Positions 1 through 15,290 of a DNA stretch of 18,852 bases are shown here, piece by piece. Location of the stretch: the IMG/VR virus record IMGVR_UViG_2671180338_000001, one strand, 5' to 3'. Every line of letters starts with the position of its first letter. The stretch's first letter is position 1. Source of the DNA: a virus (taxonomy: Duplodnaviria > Heunggongvirae > Uroviricota > Caudoviricetes). A model generated the notes under the pieces. That model had not been told where the DNA came from and did not search any database. It saw only the letters and a list, made by a program, of their open reading frames with translations. The position numbers were made by a program, and so were the translations under genes.

Positions 1-200
1 AACAGATGTCTGGAAATATAGGGGCAAATCCAATCGTCGCCGTATTCCCGTATTAACAGAGACCGTAGCCCGACGGGGAACTCCTTCTGCGCGAGTGTGC
101 GGGAATAATCAAAAACGATGCACACCGGGGTTACCGGGTACACATATTTCATCATGCCAGCGAGTCCGGTTCTGGCACGGAAGAAACCGGACGTTATGAT

Positions 201-642
201 TTAGTGCGGAAATATTTGTGTAGTGTTCTGTATGTTCTCAGTAAAGAGTAATGAATTATCAAAGGTATAGTAATACCTTTTGTTTTCGTGGATATTTGTA
301 ATCCATCTGAAAACCCCTGCTGTAGCAAGATTTTTCCTGTATTCGTAAAATGATAACTCTCCTGATTTGAATCCTTTTAAGGTGGCTTCTATAAGGCATT
401 TATTTTTTGAAAATCTTACATTTACAACCTTACCCTGTCCTTTTATTAAAACCGTATTATCGTTTTCAAGAACAAGATGAATATTCTCTGTGGCTAAATA
501 GTAAATGTAATGTGAGACATTGTGACGTTTTAGTTCAGAATANNNNNNNNNNNNNNNNNNNNNNNNNNNNNNNAAACCAGTGATAGTTTAAATTATTTCG
601 CACTTTATCGAATATTTGTTTAAAAATGGCAACCTGAGCCAT
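201..642 (-). CDS. hypothetical prophage accessory protein, possibly DUF1398/YbcV-like; interrupted by N-run 543-573
   Basis: Minus strand: ATG at 642-640 preceded by GGAAGG Shine-Dalgarno, 23 codons ([23 protein letters not shown]) up to the N-run. On the other side an open frame of 113 codons with no Met and no stop ([113 protein letters not shown]) ends at stop 203-201. Such a long open frame in AT-rich DNA is unlikely by chance. Family assignment is from memory of a small gene found between bor and cos in E. coli lambdoid prophages and is unverified. The two parts are in phase only if the true gap is a multiple of 3, not 31. Confidence 0.45.
543..573. other. assembly gap (run of 31 N)
   Basis: Literal N characters; true length and content unknown. 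Confidence 0.95.
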
Positions 643-722
643 TGTAGTACCTTCCATGTGATATGAGGGGGCGTAGTCTGCACGATTATCTAAATTGCTT
701 CAATCTGGTCTAACCTGTTTTC

Positions 723-770
723 NNNNNNNNNNNNNNNNNNNNNNNNNNNNNNNNNNNNNNNNNNNNNNNN
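723..770. other. assembly gap (run of 48 N)
   Basis: Literal N characters; true length and content unknown. Confidence 0.95.
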
Positions 771-965
771 GTCACTCTTTTCTTTGTTTGCTTCAGGCGA
801 AACTCTTTTTTCTGAGCACAGTCTCCGGCGGCAGGCTTCAATGACCCAGGCTGAGAAATTCCCGGACCCTTTTTGAACAAGAGCGATGTTAATTTGTTCA
901 ATCATTTGGTTAGGAAAGCGGATGTTGCGGGTTGTTGTTCTGCGGGTTCTGTTCTTCGTTGACAT
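771..965 (-). CDS. small ribbon-helix-helix-like putative DNA-binding protein (YlcI/DUF3950-like); 3-prime end lost in N-run
   Basis: Minus-strand ATG at 965-963; 65 codons before the gap: MSTKNRTRRTTTRNIRFPNQMIEQINIALVQKGSGNFSAWVIEACRRRLCSEKRVSPEANKEKSD. A basic N-terminal tail, then a short beta-strand-like segment (RNIRFPNQM) and two helices fit an Arc/MetJ/CopG-type fold. Resemblance to the small prophage protein YlcI is from memory. The stop codon is probably inside the gap; the in-frame residues after the gap (690-722) are not trustworthy. Confidence 0.5.
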
Positions 966-1164
966 GAGGTTGCCCTGTATTCAGTGTCGCTGATTTGTAT
1001 TGTCTGAAGTTGTTTTTACGTTAAGTTGATGCAGATCAATTAATACGATACCTGCGTCATAATTGATTATTTGACGTGGTTTGATGGCGTAGATGCACGT
1101 TGTGACATGTAGATGATAATTATTATCATTTTGCGGGTCCTTTCCGGCGATCCGACAGGTTACG

Positions 1165-1176
1165 GGGCGGAAGGCG
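1165..1176. other. cosN cohesive-end segment (terminase nicking region), variant sequence
   Basis: Flanks match the lambda right-end/left-end junction (...ccgacaggttacg | gggcgg...cgcgggttttcgctatttatga). The 12 nt where lambda has GGGCGGCGACCT read gggcggaaggcg here. Confidence 0.6.
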
Positions 1177-1216
1177 CGCGGGTTTTCGCTATTTATGACA
1201 ATTTTCCGGTTTAAGG

Positions 1217-1333
1217 CGTTTCCGTTCTTCTTCGCCGTAACCTAATGTTTTTATTTAAAACACCCCCTGAAAAGAAAGGAAACGACAGGTGCTGAAAACG
1301 GGCTTTTTGGCCTCTGTCGTTTCCTTTCTCTGT
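1217..1333 (+). promoter_or_regulatory. cosB: gpNu1 binding sites R3 (~1217-1234), R2 (~1274-1289, inverted) and R1 (~1316-1333), with an IHF I1-like AT-rich site (~1240-1262)
   Basis: R3 cgtttccgttcttcttcg; R2 aaaggaaacgacag and R1 ctgtcgtttccttt form a perfect 14-bp inverted repeat; the AT-rich taacctaatgtttttatttaaaa lies between R3 and R2. Layout matches lambda cosB immediately upstream of Nu1. Confidence 0.75.

Positions 1334-1873: not shown

Positions 1874-1899
<26 letters not shown>
1354..1899 (+). CDS. nu1: terminase small subunit gpNu1
   Basis: 181 aa; ATG at 1354 just downstream of cosB. N-terminal helix-turn-helix region (KKQLADIFGASIRTIQNWQEQG). Near-identical to lambda Nu1 from memory, with a few substitutions. 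3-prime end overlaps the start of A. Confidence 0.97.
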
Positions 1900-5580
<3,681 letters not shown>

Positions 5581-5600
<20 letters not shown>

Positions 5601-6900
5601 TCTCCCGCATATTGCCAGCATGGCTTTTAATGAGCCGCTGATGCTTGAACCCGCCTATGCGCGGGTTTTCTTTTGTGCGCTTGCAGGCCAGCTTGGGATC
5701 AGCTGCCTGACGGATGCAGTATCCGGCGACAGCCTGACTGCCGGAGAGGCACCCGCGGCGCTGGCGTTATCCGGTGATGATGACGGACCACGACAGGCCC
5801 GCAGTTATCAGGTAATGAACGGCATCGCCGTGCTGCCGGTGTCCGGCACGCTGGTCAGCCGGACGCGGGCGCTGCAGCCGTACTCGGGGATGACCGGTTA
5901 CAACGGCATTATCGCCCGTCTGCAACAGGCTGCCAGCGACCCGATGGTGGACGGCATTCTGCTCGATATGGACACACCGGGCGGAATGGTGGCGGGAGCA
6001 TTTGACTGCGCTGACATCATCGCCCGTGTGCGTGACATAAAGCCGGTATGGGCGCTGGCCAATGACATGAACTGCAGCGCAGGTCAGCTGCTTGCCAGTG
6101 CCGCCTCCCGGCGTCTGGTCACGCAGACCGCCCGGACAGGCTCCATCGGCGTCATGATGGCTCACAGTAATTACGGCGCTGCACTGGAGAAACAGGGCGT
6201 GGAAATCACGCTGATTTACAGCGGCAGCCATAAGGTGGATGGCAACCCCTACAGCCATCTACCGGATGATGTCCGGGAAACATTGCAGTCCCGGATGGAT
6301 GCAACCCGCCGGATGTTTGCACAGAAGGTGTCGGCATATACCGGCCTGTCCGTGCAGGCTGTGCTGGATACCGAGGCTGCAGTGTACAGCGGTCAGGAGG
6401 CCATTGATGCCGGACTGGCTGATGAACTTGTTAACAGTACCGATGCGATCACCGTCATGCGTGATGCACTGGATGCACGTAAATCCCGTCTCTCAGGAGG
6501 GCGAATGACCAAAGAGACTCAATCAACAACTGTTTCAGCCACTGCTTCGCAGGCTGACGTTACTGGCGTGGTGCAAGCGACGGAGGGCGAGAACGCCAGC
6601 GCGGCGCAGCCGGACGTGAACGCGCAGATCACCGCAGCGGTTGCGGCAGAAAACAGTCGCATTATGGGGATCCTCAACTGTGAGGAGGCTCACGGACGCG
6701 AAGAACAGGCACGCGTGCTGGCCGAAACCCCCGGTATGACCGTGGAAACGGCCCGCCGTATTCTGGCCGCAGCACCACAGAGTGCACAGACGCGCAGTGA
6801 CACTGCGCTGGATCGTCTGATGCAGGGGGCACCGGCACCGCTGGCTGCAGGTAACCCGGCATCTGATGCCGTTAACGATTTGCTGAACACACCAGTGTAA
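5581..6900 (+). CDS. C: head maturation protease / minor capsid protein gpC
   Basis: GTG at 5581 preceded by GGAGGAG Shine-Dalgarno; gives 439 aa (MTAELRNLPHIASMAFNEPLML...) matching lambda gpC. The track ORF from 5446 is a longer upstream extension overlapping B that I rejected. ClpP/S49-like serine protease region in the N-terminal half. Confidence 0.93.
6295..6900 (+). CDS. nu3: scaffolding protein gpNu3 (in-frame internal start within C)
   Basis: ATG at 6295 in the C reading frame, sharing the C stop at 6900; same nested position as lambda Nu3. 201 aa product (MDATRRMFAQKV...). Confidence 0.8.
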   Translation: MDATRRMFAQKVSAYTGLSVQAVLDTEAAVYSGQEAIDAGLADELVNSTDAITVMRDALDARKSRLSGGRMTKETQSTTVSATASQADVTGVVQATEGENASAAQPDVNAQITAAVAAENSRIMGILNCEEAHGREEQARVLAETPGMTVETARRILAAAPQSAQTRSDTALDRLMQGAPAPLAAGNPASDAVNDLLNTPV

Positions 6901-6909
6901 GGGATGTTT

Positions 6910-7242
6910 ATGACGAGCAAAGAAACCTTTACCCATTACCAGCCGCTGGGCAATAGTGACCCGGCTCATACCGCAACCGCGCCCGGCGGATTGAGTGCGA
7001 AAGCGCCTGCAATGACCCCGCTGATGCTGGACACCTCCACCCGTAAGCTGGTTGCGTGGGATGGCACCACCGACGGTGCTGCCGTTGGCATTCTTGCGGT
7101 TGCTGCTGACCAGACCAGCACCACACTGACGTTCTACAAGTCCGGCACGTTCCGTTATGAGGATGTGCTCTGGCCGGAGGCTGCCAGCGACGAGACGAAA
7201 AAACGGACCGTGTTTGCCGGAACGGCAATCAGCATCGTTTAA
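6910..7242 (+). CDS. D: head decoration protein gpD
   Basis: ATG at 6910 with AGGGA Shine-Dalgarno-like upstream; 110 aa [21 protein letters not shown]... matches lambda gpD. The track start at 6904 adds 2 residues and is less likely. Confidence 0.95.
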
Positions 7243-7261
7243 CTTTACCCTTCATCACTAA

Positions 7262-7285
7262 AGGCCGCCTGTGCGGCTTTTTTTA
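7262..7285 (+). terminator. terminator-like GC hairpin plus T-tract between D and E (possible attenuator / mRNA stability element)
   Basis: gccgc(7264-7268) ctgt gcggc(7273-7277) followed by ttttttt (7278-7284), 13 nt before the E start codon. Confidence 0.4.
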
Positions 7286-7297
7286 CGGGATTTTTTT

Positions 7298-8323
7298 ATG
7301 TCGATGTACACAACCGCCCAGCTGCTGGCGGCAAATGAGCAGAAATTTAAGTTTGATCCGCTGTTTCTGCGTCTCTTTTTCCGTGAGAGCTATCCCTTCA
7401 CTACGGAGAAAGTCTATCTCTCACAAATTCCGGGACTGGTAAACATGGCGCTGTACGTTTCGCCGATTGTTTCCGGTGAGGTTATCCGTTCCCGTGGCGG
7501 CTCCACCTCTGAATTTACGCCGGGATATGTCAAACCCAAGCATGAGGTGAATCCGCAGATGACCCTGCGTCGCCTGCCGGATGAAGATCCGCAGAATCTG
7601 GCGGACCCGGCTTACCGCCGCCGTCGCATCATCATGCAGAACATGCGTGACGAAGAGCTGGCCATTGCTCAGGTCGAAGAGATGCAGGCAGTTTCTGCCG
7701 TGCTCAAGGGCAAATACACCATGACCGGTGAAGCCTTCGATCCGGTTGAGGTGGATATGGGCCGCAGTGCGGCGAACAACATCACACAGTCCGGCGTCAC
7801 GGAGTGGAGCAAGCGTGACAAGTCCACGTATGACCCGACCGACGATATCGAAGCCTACGCGCTGAACGCCAGCGGTGTGGTGAATATCATCGTGTTTGAC
7901 CCGAAAGGCTGGGCGCTGTTCCGTTCCTTCAAAGCCGTCAAGGAGAAGCTGGATACCCGTCGCGGCTCTCATTCCGAGCTGGAGACAGCGGTAAAAGACC
8001 TGGGCAAAGCGGTGTCCTATAAGGGAATGTATGGCGATGTGGCCATCGTCGTGTATTCCGGACAGTACGTGGAAAACGGCGTCAAAAAGAACTTCCTGCC
8101 GGACAACACGATGGTGCTGGGGAACACTCAGGCTCGCGGTCTGCGCACCTATGGCTGCATTCAGGATGCGGACGCACAGCGCGAAGGCATTAACGCCTCT
8201 GCCCGTTACCCGAAAAACTGGGTGACCACCGGCGATCCGGCGCGTGAGTTCACCATGATTCAGTCAGCACCGCTGATGCTGCTGGCTGATCCTGATGAGT
8301 TCGTGTCCGTTCAACTGGCGTAA
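7298..8323 (+). CDS. E: major capsid protein gpE
   Basis: ATG at 7298; 341 aa MSMYTTAQLLAANEQKFKFDPLFL... matches lambda gpE. The track ORF from 7271 adds 9 residues upstream and overlaps the hairpin; rejected. Confidence 0.96.
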   Translation: MSMYTTAQLLAANEQKFKFDPLFLRLFFRESYPFTTEKVYLSQIPGLVNMALYVSPIVSGEVIRSRGGSTSEFTPGYVKPKHEVNPQMTLRRLPDEDPQNLADPAYRRRRIIMQNMRDEELAIAQVEEMQAVSAVLKGKYTMTGEAFDPVEVDMGRSAANNITQSGVTEWSKRDKSTYDPTDDIEAYALNASGVVNIIVFDPKGWALFRSFKAVKEKLDTRRGSHSELETAVKDLGKAVSYKGMYGDVAIVVYSGQYVENGVKKNFLPDNTMVLGNTQARGLRTYGCIQDADAQREGINASARYPKNWVTTGDPAREFTMIQSAPLMLLADPDEFVSVQLA

Positions 8324-8325
8324 TC

Positions 8326-8343
8326 ATGGCCCTTCGGGGCCAT
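8326..8343 (+). other. stem-loop in E-FI intergenic region (7-bp stem, TTCG loop)
   Basis: atggccc(8326-8332) ttcg gggccat(8337-8343), perfect inverted repeat starting 3 nt after the E stop, followed by tttctctc. Confidence 0.45.
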
Positions 8344-8364
8344 TTTCTCTCTGTGGAGGAGTTC

Positions 8365-8763
8365 ATGACGAAAGATGAACTGATTGCCCGTCTTCAGGAG
8401 CTGGGTGAGCAATTGAACCGCGATGTCAGTTTGACGGGAACGAAAGAAGAACTGGCGCTTCGTGTGGCAGAGCTGGAAGAAGAGCTTGATGACACGGATG
8501 AAACTGCCGGTCAGGACACCCCTCTCAGCCGGGAAAATGTGCTGACCGGGCATGAAAATGAGGTGGTATCAGCGCAGCCGGATACCGTGATTCAGGATAC
8601 GGCTGAACTGGTCACGGTCGTGGCACTGGTGACGCTGCATACTGATGCACTTCACGCCACGCGGGATAAACCTGTGGCATTTGTGCTGCCGGGAACGGCG
8701 TTTCGTGTCTCTGCCGGTGTGGCAGCCGAAATGACAGAGCGCGGCCTGGCCAGAATGCAATAA
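8365..8763 (+). CDS. FI: DNA packaging / head assembly protein gpFI
   Basis: ATG at 8365 with GGAGGA Shine-Dalgarno at 8355-8360; 132 aa MTKDELIARLQELGEQL...; size and position of lambda FI. Confidence 0.92.
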   Translation: MTKDELIARLQELGEQLNRDVSLTGTKEELALRVAELEEELDDTDETAGQDTPLSRENVLTGHENEVVSAQPDTVIQDTAELVTVVALVTLHTDALHATRDKPVAFVLPGTAFRVSAGVAAEMTERGLARMQ

Positions 8764-8774
8764 CGGGAGGCGCT

Positions 8775-9128
8775 GTGGCTGATTTCGATAACCTGTTCGA
8801 TGCTGCCATTGCCCGCGCCGATGAAACGATACGCGGGTACATGGGAACGTCAGCCACCATGACATCCGGTGAGCAGTCAGGTGCGGTGATACGTGGTGTT
8901 TTTGATGACCCTGAAAATATCAGCTATGCCGGACAGGGCGTGCGCGTTGAAGGCTCCAGCCCGTCCCTGTTTGTCCGGACTGATGAGGTGCGGCAGCTGC
9001 GGCGTGGAGACACGCTGACCATCGGTGAGGAAAATTTCTGGGTAGATCGGGTTTCGCCGGATGATGGCGGAAGTTGTCATCTCTGGCTTGGACGGGGCGT
9101 ACCGCCTGCCGTTAACCGTCGCCGCTGA
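8775..9128 (+). CDS. FII: head-tail connector (head completion) protein gpFII
   Basis: GTG start at 8775 with GGGAGG Shine-Dalgarno at 8765-8770; 117 aa MADFDNLFDAAIARADE...; matches lambda FII. Confidence 0.93.
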   Translation: MADFDNLFDAAIARADETIRGYMGTSATMTSGEQSGAVIRGVFDDPENISYAGQGVRVEGSSPSLFVRTDEVRQLRRGDTLTIGEENFWVDRVSPDDGGSCHLWLGRGVPPAVNRRR

Positions 9129-9139
9129 AAGGGGGATGT

Positions 9140-9718
9140 ATGGCCATAAAAGGTCTTGAGCAGGCCGTTGAAAACCTCAGCCGTATCAGCAAAACGGCGG
9201 TGCCCGGTGCCGCCGCAATGGCCATTAACCGCGTTGCTTCATCCGCGATATCGCAGTCTGCGTCACAGGTTGCCCGTGAGACAAAGGTACGCCGGAAACT
9301 GGTAAAGGAAAGGGCCAGGCTGAAAAGGGCCACGGTCAAAAATCCGCAGGCCAGAATCAAAGTTAACCGGGGGGATTTGCCCGTAATCAAGCTGGGTAAT
9401 GCGCGGGTTGTCCTGTCCCGCCGCAGGCGTCATAAAAAGGGGCAGCGTTCATCCCTGAAAGGTGGCGGCAGCGTGCTTGTGGTGGGTAACCGTCGTATTC
9501 CCGGCGCGTTTATTCAGCAACTGAAAAACGGCCGGTGGCATGTTATGCAGCGTGTGGCCGGGAAAAACCGTTACCCCATTGATGTGGTGAAAATCCCGAT
9601 GGCGGTGCCGCTGACCACGGCGTTTAAACAGAATATTGAACGGATACGGCGTGAACGTCTTCCGAAAGAGCTGGGCTATGCGCTGCAGCATCAACTGAGA
9701 ATGGTAATAAAGCGATGA
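9140..9718 (+). CDS. Z: tail completion protein gpZ
   Basis: 192 aa MAIKGLEQAVENLSRISK...; size and position of lambda Z; ATGA overlap with U at 9715-9718. Confidence 0.93.
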   Translation: MAIKGLEQAVENLSRISKTAVPGAAAMAINRVASSAISQSASQVARETKVRRKLVKERARLKRATVKNPQARIKVNRGDLPVIKLGNARVVLSRRRRHKKGQRSSLKGGGSVLVVGNRRIPGAFIQQLKNGRWHVMQRVAGKNRYPIDVVKIPMAVPLTTAFKQNIERIRRERLPKELGYALQHQLRMVIKR

Positions 9719-10110
9719 AACATACTGAACTCCGTGCAGCCGTACTGGATGCACTGGAGAAGCATGACACCGGGGCGACGCTTTTTGATGGTCGCCCCGC
9801 TGTTTTTGATGAGGAAGATTTTCCGGCAATTGCCGTTTATCTCACCGGCGCTGAATACACGGGCGAAGAGCTGGACAGCGATACCTGGCAGGCGGAGCTG
9901 CATATTGAAGTTTTCCTGCCTGCTCAGGTGCCGGATTCAGAGCTGGATTCGTGGATGGAGTCCCGGATTTATCCGGTGATGAGCGATATCCCGGCACTGT
10001 CAGATTTGATCACCAGTATGGTGGCCAGCGGCTATGACTACCGGCGCGACGATGATGCGGGCCTGTGGAGTTCAGCCGATCTGACTTATGTCATTATCTA
10101 TGAAATGTGA
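9715..10110 (+). CDS. U: tail terminator protein gpU
   Basis: 131 aa [18 protein letters not shown]...; matches lambda U. Confidence 0.93.
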
Positions 10111-10117
10111 GGACGCT

Positions 10118-10858
10118 ATGCCTGTACCAAATCCTACAATGCCGGTGAAAGGTGCCGGGACCACCCTGTGGGTTTATAAGGGGAGCGGTGACCCTTATGC
10201 GAACCCGCTTTCAGACGTTGACTGGTCGCGTCTGGCAAAAGTTAAAGACCTGACGCCCGGCGAACTGACCGCTGAGTCCTATGACGACAGCTATCTCGAT
10301 GATGAAGATGCAGACTGGACTGCGACCGGGCAGGGGCAGAAATCTGCCGGAGATACCAGCTTCACGCTGGCGTGGATGCCCGGAGAGCAGGGGCAGCAGG
10401 CGCTGCTGGCGTGGTTTAATGAAGGTGATACCCGTGCCTATAAAATCCGCTTCCCGAACGGCACGGTCGATGTGTTCCGTGGCTGGGTCAGCAGTATCGG
10501 TAAGGCGGTGACGGCGAAGGAGGTGATTACCCGCACGGTGAAGGTCACCAATGTGGGACGTCCGTCGATGGCAGAAGATCGCAGCACGGTGACGGCGACG
10601 ACCGGCATGACGGTGACACCCGCCAGTGCTTCCGTAGTGAAAGGGCAGAGCACCACGCTGACCGTGGCATTCCAGCCGGATGGCGCAACCGACAAGAGCT
10701 TCCGTGCGGTGTCTGCGGATAAAACAAAAGCCACCGTGTCGGTCAGTGGTATGACCATCACCGTGAAAGGTGTTGCTGCAGGCAAGGTCAACATTCCGGT
10801 CGTATCTGGTAATGGTGAGTTTGCTGCGGTTGCAGAAATCAACGTCACCGCCAGTTAA
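10118..10858 (+). CDS. V: major tail tube protein gpV
   Basis: ATG at 10118; 246 aa [22 protein letters not shown]... matches lambda gpV, including the C-terminal Ig-like region. The track start at 10088 adds 10 residues; rejected. Confidence 0.95.
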
Positions 10859-10873
10859 TCCGGAGAGTCAGCG

Positions 10874-11296
10874 ATGTTCCTGAAAACCGAATCATTTGAA
10901 CATAACGGTGTGACCGTCACGCTTTCTGAACTGTCAGCCCTGCAGCGTATTGAGCATCTCGACCTGATGAAACGGCAGGCAGAACAGGCGGAGTCAGACA
11001 GCAACCGGAAGTTTACTGTGGAAGACGCCATCAGAACCGGCGCTTTTGTGGTTGCGATGTCCCTGTGGCATAACCATCCGAAGAAGACGCAGATGCCGTC
11101 CATGAATGAAGCCGTTAAACAGATTGAGCAGGAAGTGCTTACCACCTGGCCCACAGAGGCAATTTCTCATGCTGAAAACGTGGTGTACCGGCTGTCCGGT
11201 ATGTATGAGTTTGTGGTGAATGATGCTCCTGAACAGGCAGAGGACGCCGGGCCTGCAGAGCCTGTTTCTGCGGGAAAGTGTTCGACGGTGAGCTGA
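10874..11296 (+). CDS. G: tail assembly chaperone gpG
   Basis: 140 aa MFLKTESFEHNGVTVTLSELSALQR...; GGAGAG Shine-Dalgarno at 10862-10867; matches lambda G. Confidence 0.94.
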   Translation: MFLKTESFEHNGVTVTLSELSALQRIEHLDLMKRQAEQAESDSNRKFTVEDAIRTGAFVVAMSLWHNHPKKTQMPSMNEAVKQIEQEVLTTWPTEAISHAENVVYRLSGMYEFVVNDAPEQAEDAGPAEPVSAGKCSTVS

Positions 11297-11712
11297 GTTT
11301 TGCCCTGAAACTGGCGCGTGAGATGGGGCGACCCGACTGGCGCGCCATGCTTGCCGGGATGTCATCCACGGAGTATGCCGACTGGCACCGCTTTTACAGT
11401 ACCCATTATTTTCATGATGTTCTGCTGGATATGCACTTTTCCGGGCTGACGTACACCGTGCTCAGCCTGTTTTTCAGCGATCCGGAGATGCATCCGCTGG
11501 ATTTCAGTCTGCTGAACCGGCGCGAGGCTGACGAAGAGCCTGAAGATGATGTGCTGATGCAGAAAGCGGCAGGGCTTGCCGGAGGTGTCCGCTTTGGCCC
11601 GGACGGGAATGAAGTTATCCCCGCTTCCCCGGATGTGGCGGACATGACGGAGGATGACGTAATGCTGATGACAGTATCAGAAGGGATCGCAGGAGGAGTC
11701 CGGTATGGCTGA
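10874..11712 (+). CDS. G-T: tail assembly chaperone gpG-T fusion made by programmed -1 ribosomal frameshift
   Basis: The T frame (11278-11712, ...FDGELSFALKLAREMGRPDWRAM...) is -1 relative to G and has no own initiation context. Slippery heptamer G GGA AAG at 11272-11278 sits in the G/T overlap with GGA and AAG as zero-frame codons. Known mechanism in lambda and most long-tailed phages. Confidence 0.85.
11272..11278 (+). other. -1 programmed frameshift slippery site GGGAAAG
   Basis: Sequence cggGGGAAAGtg: G at 11272 is a third codon position in the G frame, then GGA and AAG; fits the X XXY YYZ pattern. Confidence 0.8.
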
Positions 11713-14266
11713 ACCGGTAGGCGATCTGGTCGTTGATTTGAGTCTGGATGCGGCCAGATTTGACGAGCAGATGGCCAGAGTCAGGCGTCATTTTTCCGGT
11801 ACGGAAAGTGATGCGAAAAAAACAGCGGCAGTCGTTGAACAGTCGCTGAGCCGACAGGCGCTGGCTGCACAGAAAGCGGGGATTTCCGTCGGGCAGTATA
11901 AAGCCGCCATGCGTATGCTGCCTGCACAGTTCAACGACGTGGCCACGCAGCTTGCAGGGGGGCAGAATCCCTGGCTGATCCTGCTGCAACAGGGTGGTCA
12001 GGTTAAGGACTCCTTCGGCGGGATGATCCCCATGTTCAGGGGGCTTGCCGGCGCGATCACCCTGCCGATGGTGGGGGCCACCTCGCTGGCGGTGGCGACC
12101 GGTGCGCTGGCGTATGCCTGGTATCAGGGCAACTCAACCCTGTCCGATTTCAACAAAACGCTGGTCCTTTCCGGTAATCAGGCGGGACTGACGGCAGATC
12201 GTATGCTGGTCCTGTCCAGAGCCGGGCAGGCGGCAGGGCTGACGTTTAACCAGACCAGCGAGTCACTCAGCGCACTGGTTAAGGCGGGGGTAAGCGGTGA
12301 GGCTCAGATTGCGTCCATCAGCCAGAGTGTGGCGCGTTTCTCCTCTGCATCCGGCGTGGAGGTGGACAAGGTCGCTGAAGCCTTCGGGAAGCTGACCACA
12401 GACCCGACGTCGGGGCTGACGGCGATGGCACGCCAGTTCCATAACGTGACGGCGGAGCAGATTGCGTATGTTGCTCAGTTGCAGCGTTCCGGCGATGAAG
12501 CCGGGGCATTGCAGGCGGCGAACGAGGCCGCAACGAAAGGGTTTGATGACCAGACCCGCCGCCTGAAAGAGAACATGGGCACGCTGGAGACCTGGGCAGA
12601 CAGGACTGCACGTGCATTCAAATCCATGTGGGATGCGGTGCTGGATATTGGTCGTCCTGATACCGCGCAGGAGATGCTGATTAAGGCAGAGGCTGCGTTT
12701 AAGAAAGCAGACGACATCTGGAATCTGCGCAAGGATGATTATTTCGTTAACGATGAAGCACGGGCGCGTTACTGGGATGATCGTGAAAAAAAACGCCTGG
12801 AGCGGGATGCAGCCCAAAAGAGGGTAGATCAACAGCGTCAACAGGACAAAAATGCGCAGCAGCAGAGCGATACCGAAGCGTCACGGCTGAAATATACCGA
12901 AGAGGCGCAGAAGGCTTACGAACGGCTGCAGACGCCGCTGGAGAAATATACCGCCCGTCAGGAAGAACTGAACAAGGCACTGAAAGACGGAAAAATCCTG
13001 CAGGCAGATTACAACACGCTGATGGCGGCGGCGAAAAAGGATTATGAAGCGACGCTGAAAAAGCCGAAACAGTCCGGCGTGAAGGTGTATGCGGGCGATC
13101 GTCAGGAAGACAGTGCTCATGCGGCCCTGCTGACGCTTCAGGCAGAACTCCGGACGCTGGAGAAGCATGCCGGAGCGAATGAGAAAATCAGCCAGCAGCG
13201 CCGGGATTTGTGGAAGGCAGAAAGTCAGTTCGCGGTACTGGAGGAGGCGGCACAACGTCGCCAGCTGTCCGCACAGGAGAAATCCCTGCTGGCGCATAAA
13301 GACGAGACGCTGGAGTACAAACGCCAGCTGGCTGCACTTGGTGACAAGGTTACGTATCAGGAGCACCTGAATGCGCTGGCGCAGCAGGCGGATAAATTCG
13401 CACAGCAGCAACGGGCAAAACGGGCAGCCATTGATGCGAAAAACCGGGGGCTGACTGACCGGCAGGCAGCGCGGGAAGCCACGGAACAGCGCCTGAAGGA
13501 ACAGTATGGCGATAATCCTCTGGCGCTGAATAACGTCATGTCAGAGCAGAAAAAGACCTGGGCGGCTGAAGACCAGCTTCGCGGGAGCTGGATGGCAGGC
13601 CTGAAGTCCGGCTGGAGTGAGTGGGAAGAGAGCGCCACGGACAGTATGTCACAGGTTAAAAGTGCAGCCACGCAGACCTTTGATGGTATTGCACAGAATA
13701 TGGCGGCGATGCTGACCGGCAGTGAACAGAACTGGCGCAGCTTCACCCGCTCCGTGCTGTCCATGATGACAGAAATTCTGCTTAAGCAGGCAATGGTGGG
13801 GATTGTCGGGAGTATCGGCAGCGCCATTGGCGGGGCTGTTGGTGGCGGCGCATCCGCGTCAGGTGGTACAGCCATTCAGGCCGCTGCGGCGAAATTCCAT
13901 TTTGCAACCGGGGGATTTACGGGAACCGGCGGCAAATATGAGCCAGCGGGGATTGTTCACCGTGGTGAATTTGTCTTCACGAAGGAGGCAACCAGCCGGA
14001 TTGGCGTGGGGAATCTCTACCGGCTGATGCGCGGCTATGCGGAAGGTGGTTATGTGGGCGGTGCCGGAAGTCCGGCGCAGATGCGGCGGGCTGAAGGCAT
14101 TAATTTTAATCAGAACAATCACGTGGTGATTCAGAACGACGGTACGAATGGTCTGCCAGGTCCACAGATGATGAAGGCCGTGTATGACATGGCCCGCAAG
14201 GGTGCCCGTGATGAAATTCAGACACAGATGCGTGATGGTGGCCAGTTCTCCGGAGGTGGACGATGA
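11705..14266 (+). CDS. H: tail tape measure protein gpH
   Basis: 853 aa, same length as lambda gpH; ATG at 11705 overlaps the T stop; long helical region and Gly-rich C-terminal segment (GSIGSAIGGAVGGGASASGG). Confidence 0.96.
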   Translation: MAEPVGDLVVDLSLDAARFDEQMARVRRHFSGTESDAKKTAAVVEQSLSRQALAAQKAGISVGQYKAAMRMLPAQFNDVATQLAGGQNPWLILLQQGGQVKDSFGGMIPMFRGLAGAITLPMVGATSLAVATGALAYAWYQGNSTLSDFNKTLVLSGNQAGLTADRMLVLSRAGQAAGLTFNQTSESLSALVKAGVSGEAQIASISQSVARFSSASGVEVDKVAEAFGKLTTDPTSGLTAMARQFHNVTAEQIAYVAQLQRSGDEAGALQAANEAATKGFDDQTRRLKENMGTLETWADRTARAFKSMWDAVLDIGRPDTAQEMLIKAEAAFKKADDIWNLRKDDYFVNDEARARYWDDREKKRLERDAAQKRVDQQRQQDKNAQQQSDTEASRLKYTEEAQKAYERLQTPLEKYTARQEELNKALKDGKILQADYNTLMAAAKKDYEATLKKPKQSGVKVYAGDRQEDSAHAALLTLQAELRTLEKHAGANEKISQQRRDLWKAESQFAVLEEAAQRRQLSAQEKSLLAHKDETLEYKRQLAALGDKVTYQEHLNALAQQADKFAQQQRAKRAAIDAKNRGLTDRQAAREATEQRLKEQYGDNPLALNNVMSEQKKTWAAEDQLRGSWMAGLKSGWSEWEESATDSMSQVKSAATQTFDGIAQNMAAMLTGSEQNWRSFTRSVLSMMTEILLKQAMVGIVGSIGSAIGGAVGGGASASGGTAIQAAAAKFHFATGGFTGTGGKYEPAGIVHRGEFVFTKEATSRIGVGNLYRLMRGYAEGGYVGGAGSPAQMRRAEGINFNQNNHVVIQNDGTNGLPGPQMMKAVYDMARKGARDEIQTQMRDGGQFSGGGR

Positions 14267-14592
14267 AAACCTTCCGCTGGAAAGTGAAACCCGGTATGGA
14301 TGTGGCTTCGGCCCCTTCTGTAAGAAAGGTGCGCTTTGGTGATGGCTATTCCCAGCGAGCGCCTGCCGGGCTGAATGCCAACCTGAAAACGTACAGCGTG
14401 ACGCTTTCTGTCCCCCGTGAGGAGGCCATGGTACTGGAGTCGTTTCTGGAAGAGCACGGGGGCTGGAAAGCCTTTCTGTGGACGCCGCCTTATGAGTGGC
14501 GGCAGATAAAGGTGACCTGCGCAAAATGGTCGTCGCGGGTCAGTATGCTGCGTGTTGAGTTCAGCGCAGAGTTTGAACAGGTGGTGAACTGA
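14263..14592 (+). CDS. M: tail tip assembly protein gpM
   Basis: 109 aa MKTFRWKVKPGMDVASAPSVRKVRFGDGYSQRAP...; ATGA overlap with H stop; matches lambda M. Confidence 0.94.
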   Translation: MKTFRWKVKPGMDVASAPSVRKVRFGDGYSQRAPAGLNANLKTYSVTLSVPREEAMVLESFLEEHGGWKAFLWTPPYEWRQIKVTCAKWSSRVSMLRVEFSAEFEQVVN

Positions 14593-15290
14593 TGCAGGAT
14601 ATCCGGCAGGAAACACTGAATGAATGCACCCGTGCGGAGCAGTCGGCCAGCGTGGTGCTCTGGGAAATCGATCTGACAGAGGTCGGTGGAGAACGTTATT
14701 TTTTCTGTAATGAGCAGAACGAAAAAGGTGAGCCGGTCACCTGGCAGGGGCGACAGTATCAGCCGTATCCCATTCAGGGGAGTGGTTTTGAACTGAATGG
14801 CAAAGGCACCAGTACGCGCCCCACGCTGATGGTTTCTAACCTGTACGGTATGGTCACCGGGATGGCGGAAGATCTACAGAGTCTGGTCGGCGGAACGGTG
14901 GTCCGGCGTAAGGTTTACGCCCGTTTTCTGGATGCGGTGAACTTCGTCAACGGAAACAGTGACGCCGATCCGGAGCAGGAGGTGATCAGCCGCTGGCGCA
15001 TTGAGCAGTGCAGCGAACTGAGCGCGGTGAGTGCCTCTTTTGTACTGTCCACGCCGACGGAAACAGATGGCGCTGTTTTTCCGGGACGTATCATGCTGGC
15101 CAACACCTGCACCTGGACCTATCGCGGCGATGAGTGCGGTTATCACGGTCCGGCGGTCGCGGATGAATATGACCAGCCAACGTCCGACATCACGAAGGAT
15201 AAATGCAGCAAATGCCTGAGTGGCTGTAAGTTTCGCAATAACGTCGGCAACTTTGGCGGCTTCCTTTCCATTAACAAACTTTCGCAGTAA
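14592..15290 (+). CDS. L: tail tip protein gpL
   Basis: 232 aa MQDIRQETLNECTRAEQSASVVLWEIDL...; ATGA overlap with M stop at 14590-14592; C-terminal Cys cluster (CTWTYRGDECGYHG...CSKCLSGC) consistent with the metal-cluster region of lambda gpL. Confidence 0.95.
   Translation: MQDIRQETLNECTRAEQSASVVLWEIDLTEVGGERYFFCNEQNEKGEPVTWQGRQYQPYPIQGSGFELNGKGTSTRPTLMVSNLYGMVTGMAEDLQSLVGGTVVRRKVYARFLDAVNFVNGNSDADPEQEVISRWRIEQCSELSAVSASFVLSTPTETDGAVFPGRIMLANTCTWTYRGDECGYHGPAVADEYDQPTSDITKDKCSKCLSGCKFRNNVGNFGGFLSINKLSQ

Follow-up and report, generated by a model that had tools for sequence, protein, structure and literature searches.

Work from the Feiss laboratory on the closest described systems, lambda and its relatives, has established that cosN is functionally asymmetric, with cosQ, bp 1 to 6 and the flanking CG dinucleotides conserved (PMC4669245). 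The left half (bp 1 to 6) is functionally critical, whereas mutations in bp 7 to 12 have a minimal effect on cos cleavage; C11G gave no phenotype, whereas the symmetric change, G2C, lowered the yield about tenfold (PMC4669245). The cause given for this asymmetry is that the bottom strand is nicked by cosB-anchored terminase with little dependence on sequence (PMC4669245). Natural variants within bp 7 to 12 are also on record: N15 and phiD326 differ from lambda at positions 9 and 12, Gifsy-1 at 8, 9 and 11, and lambda- and N15-specific terminases gave equal yields on cosN-lambda and cosN-N15 (PMC4669245). When dilysogens were packaged by a helper, the 2-bp mismatch with N15 was accompanied by a 4-fold loss of yield (PMC4669245). 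For mEp213 and LLS the reported sequence, itself deduced, is GGGCGGCGCGCT (PMC12315714).

We analyzed a cos site located within 18,852 nucleotides of the IMG/VR virus record IMGVR_UViG_2671180338_000001, a stretch that we refer to as the window. As reference we used the lambda record J02459.1, which starts with GGGCGGCGACCT and ends with CCGACAGGTTACG. The 12-mer at window 1165 to 1176 is GGGCGGAAGGCG, and its counterpart in lambda is GGGCGGCGACCT. In the alignment the two differ at bp 7, 8, 9, 10 and 12 only (window 1171 to 1174 and 1176); bp 1 to 6 and bp 11 agree with lambda, and the CG dinucleotides on both sides of cosN are kept. The 13 bases to the left (window 1152 to 1164, CCGACAGGTTACG) are the final 13 bases of lambda without a mismatch, and the sequence from window 1177 on (CGCGGGTTTTCGCTATTTATGA) matches lambda from bp 13 on. 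The window holds a single copy of the 12-mer, where 0.01 would be expected by chance. A preliminary description of this DNA had reported a joined, uncut cos at 1154 to 1187, flanks nearly identical to those of lambda, and a cohesive-end segment in which five of the last six positions differ and the first six are conserved. Each of these statements was borne out against the reference record: the right-end bases of lambda abut the 12-mer directly, with cosQ on its 5′ side and cosB, Nu1 and A downstream. Prophage DNA and replicating DNA are both expected to carry cos in this form. The features of the region are collected in Table 1.

Table 1. Features of the cos region and the terminase genes in the window
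Feature	Position	Strand	Remarks
cosQ heptamer GGGTCCT, packaging-termination signal	1135..1141	+	exact match; lambda 48473-48479
cosN core, CG + 12-bp cohesive-end segment + CG	1163..1178	.	reads CG GGGCGG AAGGCG CG; homology
cosN left half (bp 1-6), GGGCGG	1165..1170	+	conserved relative to lambda
cosN right half (bp 7-12), AAGGCG, variant allele	1171..1176	+	lambda has CGACCT
Predicted nicks	top strand 1164/1165, bottom strand 1176/1177		basis: homology with lambda
cosB R3, AGGCGTTTCCGTTCTT, small-terminase binding site	1214..1229	+	exact match
R3-R2 spacer, corresponding to the lambda segment with IHF site I1	1230..1272	+	placed by alignment
cosB R2, AGAAAGGAAACGACAG on the + strand, inverted relative to R1	1273..1288	-	exact match
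cosB R1, CTGTCGTTTCCTTTCT	1314..1329	+	exact match
Nu1, terminase small subunit, 181 aa	1354..1899	+	Pfam Phage_Nu1 over its full length, E = 2.4e-101
A, terminase large subunit, 641 aa, cosN-nicking nuclease	1874..3799	+	homology to lambda gpA

The rotational symmetry of cosN is lower than in lambda (8 of 16 positions versus 10 of 16) but still present, with the pairs G3:C10 and G6:C7 gone and C4:G9 new. The overhang has the same G+C content as that of lambda, 10 of 12, and a predicted Tm of 46.3°C versus 47.8°C. We note that the variant creates a GCGCGC palindrome (a BssHII site, within a CGCGCG run) at window 1174 to 1179. Its centre falls on the predicted bottom-strand nick at 1176/1177, where lambda reads CCT/CGC. 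No contig or record with a physical end at the variant cosN was found, and cos is internal in both of the deposited phage records that carry the allele.

Outside cosN the site is organized as in lambda. R3 lies at bp 50 to 65 from the nick in both, and the alignment has no indel from cosQ to lambda bp 137, so that the distances from cosQ to cosN and from cosN to R3 are those of lambda. The R3-R2 spacer differs from lambda by a few substitutions only, and the R2-R1 spacer has a 1-bp deletion (window ~1300, lambda bp 137) that is common to PhiR46_1 and YDC107_1. Compared with the cos of lambda (J02459), the window therefore shares cosQ, the flanking CG, bp 1 to 6 and 11, all three R sites, the cosN-R3 spacing and the start of Nu1, whereas it departs from lambda in cosN (AAGG.G against CGAC.T), in the R2-R1 deletion and in the few spacer substitutions. 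In the other AAGGCG loci in cos context that we examined, cosQ was kept, with single-base variants in two. The hexamer AAGGCG appears a second time at window 1213 to 1218, at the start of R3 (TTTAAGGCGTTTCC). This coincidence is probably due to chance, as the allele is also found with cosB types that lack that R3.

Several observations concern the DNA upstream of cos. Forced MAFFT alignment of the window upstream of ~1000 with the last 1.2 kb of lambda was poor. BLAST against lambda records in prophage order gave two segments that together cover the window from position 32 on, so the poor match of the upstream ~1000 bp may reflect no more than an offset caused by an indel. In related E. coli prophages, the counterpart of window 1 to 1000 is annotated with a DUF1398 protein and a YlcI/YnfO-family protein; the open reading frame at 690 to 965 on the minus strand would fit the latter.

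The window matches the lambda left arm at 96.6% identity across 98% of its length. Nu1 differs from its lambda counterpart at 3 of 181 residues (K48R, A75T and L132I; 98.3% identity) and gpA at 3 of 641 (T151S, D185E and T466I; 99.5% identity). The 20 lambda genes Nu1 through I all have full-length counterparts that align without gaps at 94 to 100% amino acid identity, and J continues past the end of the window. The lowest identities among the morphogenesis proteins were seen for FI (93.9%, window 8365 to 8760) and H (95.4%, window 11705 to 14263); the others lie at 96 to 100%. Nothing in the window suggests prophage decay.

We compared gpA among 58 loci that encode a complete 641-residue protein (32 with CGACCT, 24 with AAGGCG and 2 with other alleles). 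No position covaried with the cosN allele across this set. At least one AAGGCG locus encodes a gpA identical to that of lambda, and the positions substituted in the window (151, 185 and 466) are polymorphic in both the CGACCT and the AAGGCG groups. A terminase adapted to the allele was considered and rejected, because no gpA position follows the allele. Among loci with complete sequence, gpA was full length in 24 of 26 with AAGGCG versus 32 of 40 with the canonical segment.

The preliminary description had proposed alignment to the lambda ends and to other lambdoid cos sites. We searched with 48 bases across the site and required an exact 28-base word, so that every match must span the variant positions. 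In a set of 5,426 complete E. coli genomes, the 48-mer containing GGGCGGAAGGCG had 170 matches distributed over 159 genomes, and the canonical 48-mer had 8,403 in 4,481 genomes. By these counts, the AAGGCG allele makes up ~2% of the lambda-flanked cos sites in complete E. coli genomes. Sixteen of the 170 places are on plasmids, several of them records of ~46 kb, and these ~46-kb plasmid-borne elements come from chickens, humans, wild birds, a cat and a dog. The phage collection gave two matches to the 48-mer, PhiR46_1 (PV340565) and YDC107_1 (CP025712), both of which carry exactly GGGCGGAAGGCG.

A scan of IMG/VR for any allele between strict lambda flanks returned, among the matches listed, 116 sites with CGACCT, 3 with AAGGCG and 1 with CGACCG. 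When the scan was restricted to sites without C at bp 7, 57 AAGGCG loci were found, and the other alleles in true cos context were few (GAGCGG, GAGCGT, AGACCT and TGACCT). Intermediates between CGACCT and AAGGCG were absent from the IMG/VR scans, in the strict-flank scan among the matches listed. In GTDB species representatives, the variant 21-mer had nine matches, and the sole plausible host of lambdoid phages among them is Escherichia sp. E1V33. The other eight, in GC-rich, unrelated taxa, were judged by organism to be chance matches, so the GTDB scan tells little beyond "Escherichia." A text search of the literature for the 12-mer or its complement returned only unrelated plant and Streptomyces primers; the survey by Vahanian et al. 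2017 (Virology 509:140) was outside its scope.

The two phage records bear on the viability of phages with this allele. The database entry for PhiR46_1 describes a complete phage genome and names ECOR13 as its host. Lambda-related temperate phages of the PhiR series, credited to Brenes and Laub 2025, have served as a panel in efficiency-of-plaquing assays (PMC13190303). From its name and accession series we infer that PhiR46_1 belongs to this panel, and the record metadata together with membership in the series suggest that it forms plaques. YDC107_1 was submitted as a complete phage chromosome of 46.7 kb, and its classification is Ravinvirus (N15-like). Both YDC107_1 and several of the ~46-kb E. 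coli plasmids have a lambda-type cosB, Nu1 and A together with AAGGCG. These elements do not have a simple N15-type cos, and their packaging module is thus mosaic.

The allele was found in three downstream contexts. In 41 loci it is followed by a lambda-type cosB. In others, the gene after cosB encodes a TerS with a phage-21-like DNA-binding domain (85% identity to gp1 of phage 21 over the first 80 aa), while the C-terminal part of TerS and gpA are lambda-like. The third context consists of satellite-like elements with a decoration-protein gene, an AlpA-like gene and a Nu1-like protein that lacks the N-terminal domain of Nu1; no TerL was present within the ~3.4 kb downstream that we examined. 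The left flanks of the AAGGCG loci are of at least six kinds, and the combinations of left flank and downstream context are mixed. Published PICI cos sites have a cosQ and a cosN almost identical to those of their helpers (PMC9026076). Phage-21-type phages and PICI-type satellites share the cosQ/cosN module with the window, some of them with AAGGCG, but have another cosB and other small-terminase or Rpp-like DNA-binding parts.

From window ~990 to 1198, nothing but the five substitutions separates this DNA from that of the canonical-allele phages Chlobot and 2H10, which indicates that the allele acts as a swapped patch rather than as accumulated point mutations. Given this clean five-change patch, and the fact that the scans held no intermediates, an origin by stepwise point mutation was rejected. 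Judged from these sequence comparisons, the allele behaves as an exchanged unit that moves among lambdoid backgrounds. A plausible route for its spread is exchange at cos itself: packaging from one cos to a downstream cos that differs from it would give a heteroduplex 12-mer, and replication would then fix either allele. For lambda and N15, replication has been demonstrated to resolve such a heteroduplex to either allele (PMC4669245). The same outcome would follow from ordinary recombination within the conserved flanks.

We also came across cos sites, with AAGGCG or with other alleles, in arrangements that involve inserted elements. In APEC E14033 (NZ_CP126948), AAGGCG is present in a lambda-like prophage that lies at the ybhC-side attachment site and has a full early region. 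The major capsid gene E of this prophage (region L242 26151-38452) is interrupted by an insert of ~11 kb with genes for an integrase, an Icd-like protein, a primase, and a major capsid protein and decoration protein of its own; the insert resembles a satellite that forms its own capsids and has integrated into a head gene of the phage. IMGVR_UViG_2623620496_000002 (L170, reverse-complement coordinates 2312-14700) has two cos sites that differ in allele and are separated by 12 kb. There, cos with AAGGCG is followed by Nu1, A and W and then by the portal gene B, which breaks off at residue 279; past this point lies foreign DNA with an E-like (42% identity) and a D-like (38%) protein and a cos with CGACCT and a satellite-type right flank. 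This arrangement looks like a satellite in the prophage gene B. Finally, IMGVR_UViG_2574179916_000005 (L125) has three cos-like sites, each consisting of cosQ and cosN, at 67, 8202 and 10738 on one strand within 12 kb, with the alleles GAGCGT, GAGCGT and GAGCGG, respectively. These may represent tandem satellites or a repeated cos module.

Taken together, these comparisons make it highly likely that window 1135 to 1329 is a complete, working lambda-type cos in its joined form, with a natural right-half allele and with the ends 5′-GGGCGGAAGGCG and 5′-CGCCTTCCGCCC. The cleavage positions and the ends are predicted from homology with lambda. Since the changes are confined to the tolerant half of the site, GGGCGGAAGGCG is very probably an ordinary, working variant, a minority natural allele and not damage. 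A lambda-type terminase would bind R3, R2 and R1 through Nu1, which would place gpA on cosN; gpA would then nick 5′ of G1165 in the top strand and, in the bottom strand, opposite 1176/1177. Nicking at these positions would generate 12-nt 5′ overhangs, GGGCGGAAGGCG at the left end and CGCCTTCCGCCC at the right end. As the bottom-strand nick would be directed by the cosB-anchored terminase, the sequence of the right half would be only weakly constrained, and as both ends of a chromosome derive from copies of one site, the new ends would still be mutually complementary. The allele fits the published pattern of bp 7 to 12 variation exactly, with more positions altered. Like N15, phiD326, Gifsy-1 and mEp213/LLS, the window varies within bp 7 to 12 and conserves the left half, the flanking CG and cosQ. 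It differs from N15, phiD326 and Gifsy-1, in which two or three positions are changed and function is documented, in having five changes, and it differs from the other right-half variants in that its cos is otherwise identical to that of lambda and is paired with a lambda terminase.

The preliminary description had left a choice between different sticky ends and a damaged cosN. The former is well supported at the sequence level by the wide recurrence of the allele, its presence in propagated phages, the intact packaging and morphogenesis genes, and the location of the changes in the tolerant half. The alternative, that cosN is damaged and the prophage, unable to cut its own DNA, is packaging-defective (cryptic), could draw on the clustering of five substitutions within the cleavage site and on the drop in symmetry from 10 to 8 of 16 positions. 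We consider it very unlikely, because the allele has been kept in 159 genomes and 57 IMG/VR contigs whose flanks have diverged, and because it occurs in a phage from a plaquing-assay panel, in the Ravinvirus record and at 16 plasmid-borne places that include the ~46-kb records, in strains from many hosts. Moreover, the terminase and every head and tail gene in the window are intact, gpA is full length at least as often in variant as in canonical loci, and the altered positions are experimentally tolerant (PMC4669245). A damaged cosN is not supported, and the unusualness implied by the preliminary description was overstated, since variation at bp 7 to 12 is documented (PMC4669245) and the allele accounts for ~2% of lambda-flanked cos sites in E. 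coli.

It is also conceivable that the site is cut at shifted positions or with altered efficiency, so that the ends differ from those of lambda in length or position, or that a co-adapted terminase is needed. The alteration of the right half beside the bottom-strand nick, bp 12 included, and the new palindrome centred on that nick would agree with this, but neither the CG dinucleotides at the two nicks nor the cosN-R3 spacing by which the nuclease is positioned has changed. N15 also differs at bp 12 and retains function with lambda terminase (PMC4669245), and gpA lacks allele-specific residues and can equal that of lambda. We regard shifted or altered cutting as unlikely on this evidence. A sequencing or assembly error in the window, which had been raised as a possibility, has a negligible probability: more than 200 public sequences, obtained independently on different platforms and in different laboratories, share the very same 12-mer, which in effect excludes such an error.

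If the 12-mer is a working allele, phages and cosmids with AAGGCG would have ends that anneal improperly with those of lambda. It is conceivable, if unlikely, that the dimorphism of lambda-type cos, whose two main cohesive-end alleles (CGACCT and AAGGCG) are five substitutions apart, is not neutral and acts as a barrier of cohesive-end compatibility. If so, a chromosome packaged across alleles, from tandem, recombinant or satellite-bearing DNA, would have ends that match at only 7 of 12 positions and would circularize poorly, and productive cross-packaging among lambdoid prophages and satellites that share a host would thereby be limited. In practical terms, annotation tools and probes keyed to GGGCGGCGACCT miss ~2% of the lambda-flanked cos sites of E. 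coli, including those of linear-plasmid prophages and satellites. As far as its sequence can tell, the site in the window is a normal, probably working lambda-type cos and not a lesion, which settles the question raised by the altered cosN; the variation is of a known type, with more positions changed than in N15 or Gifsy-1. The allele lends natural support to the published asymmetry of cosN, as five of the six right-half positions have changed together in a lambda-identical background and with a lambda terminase.
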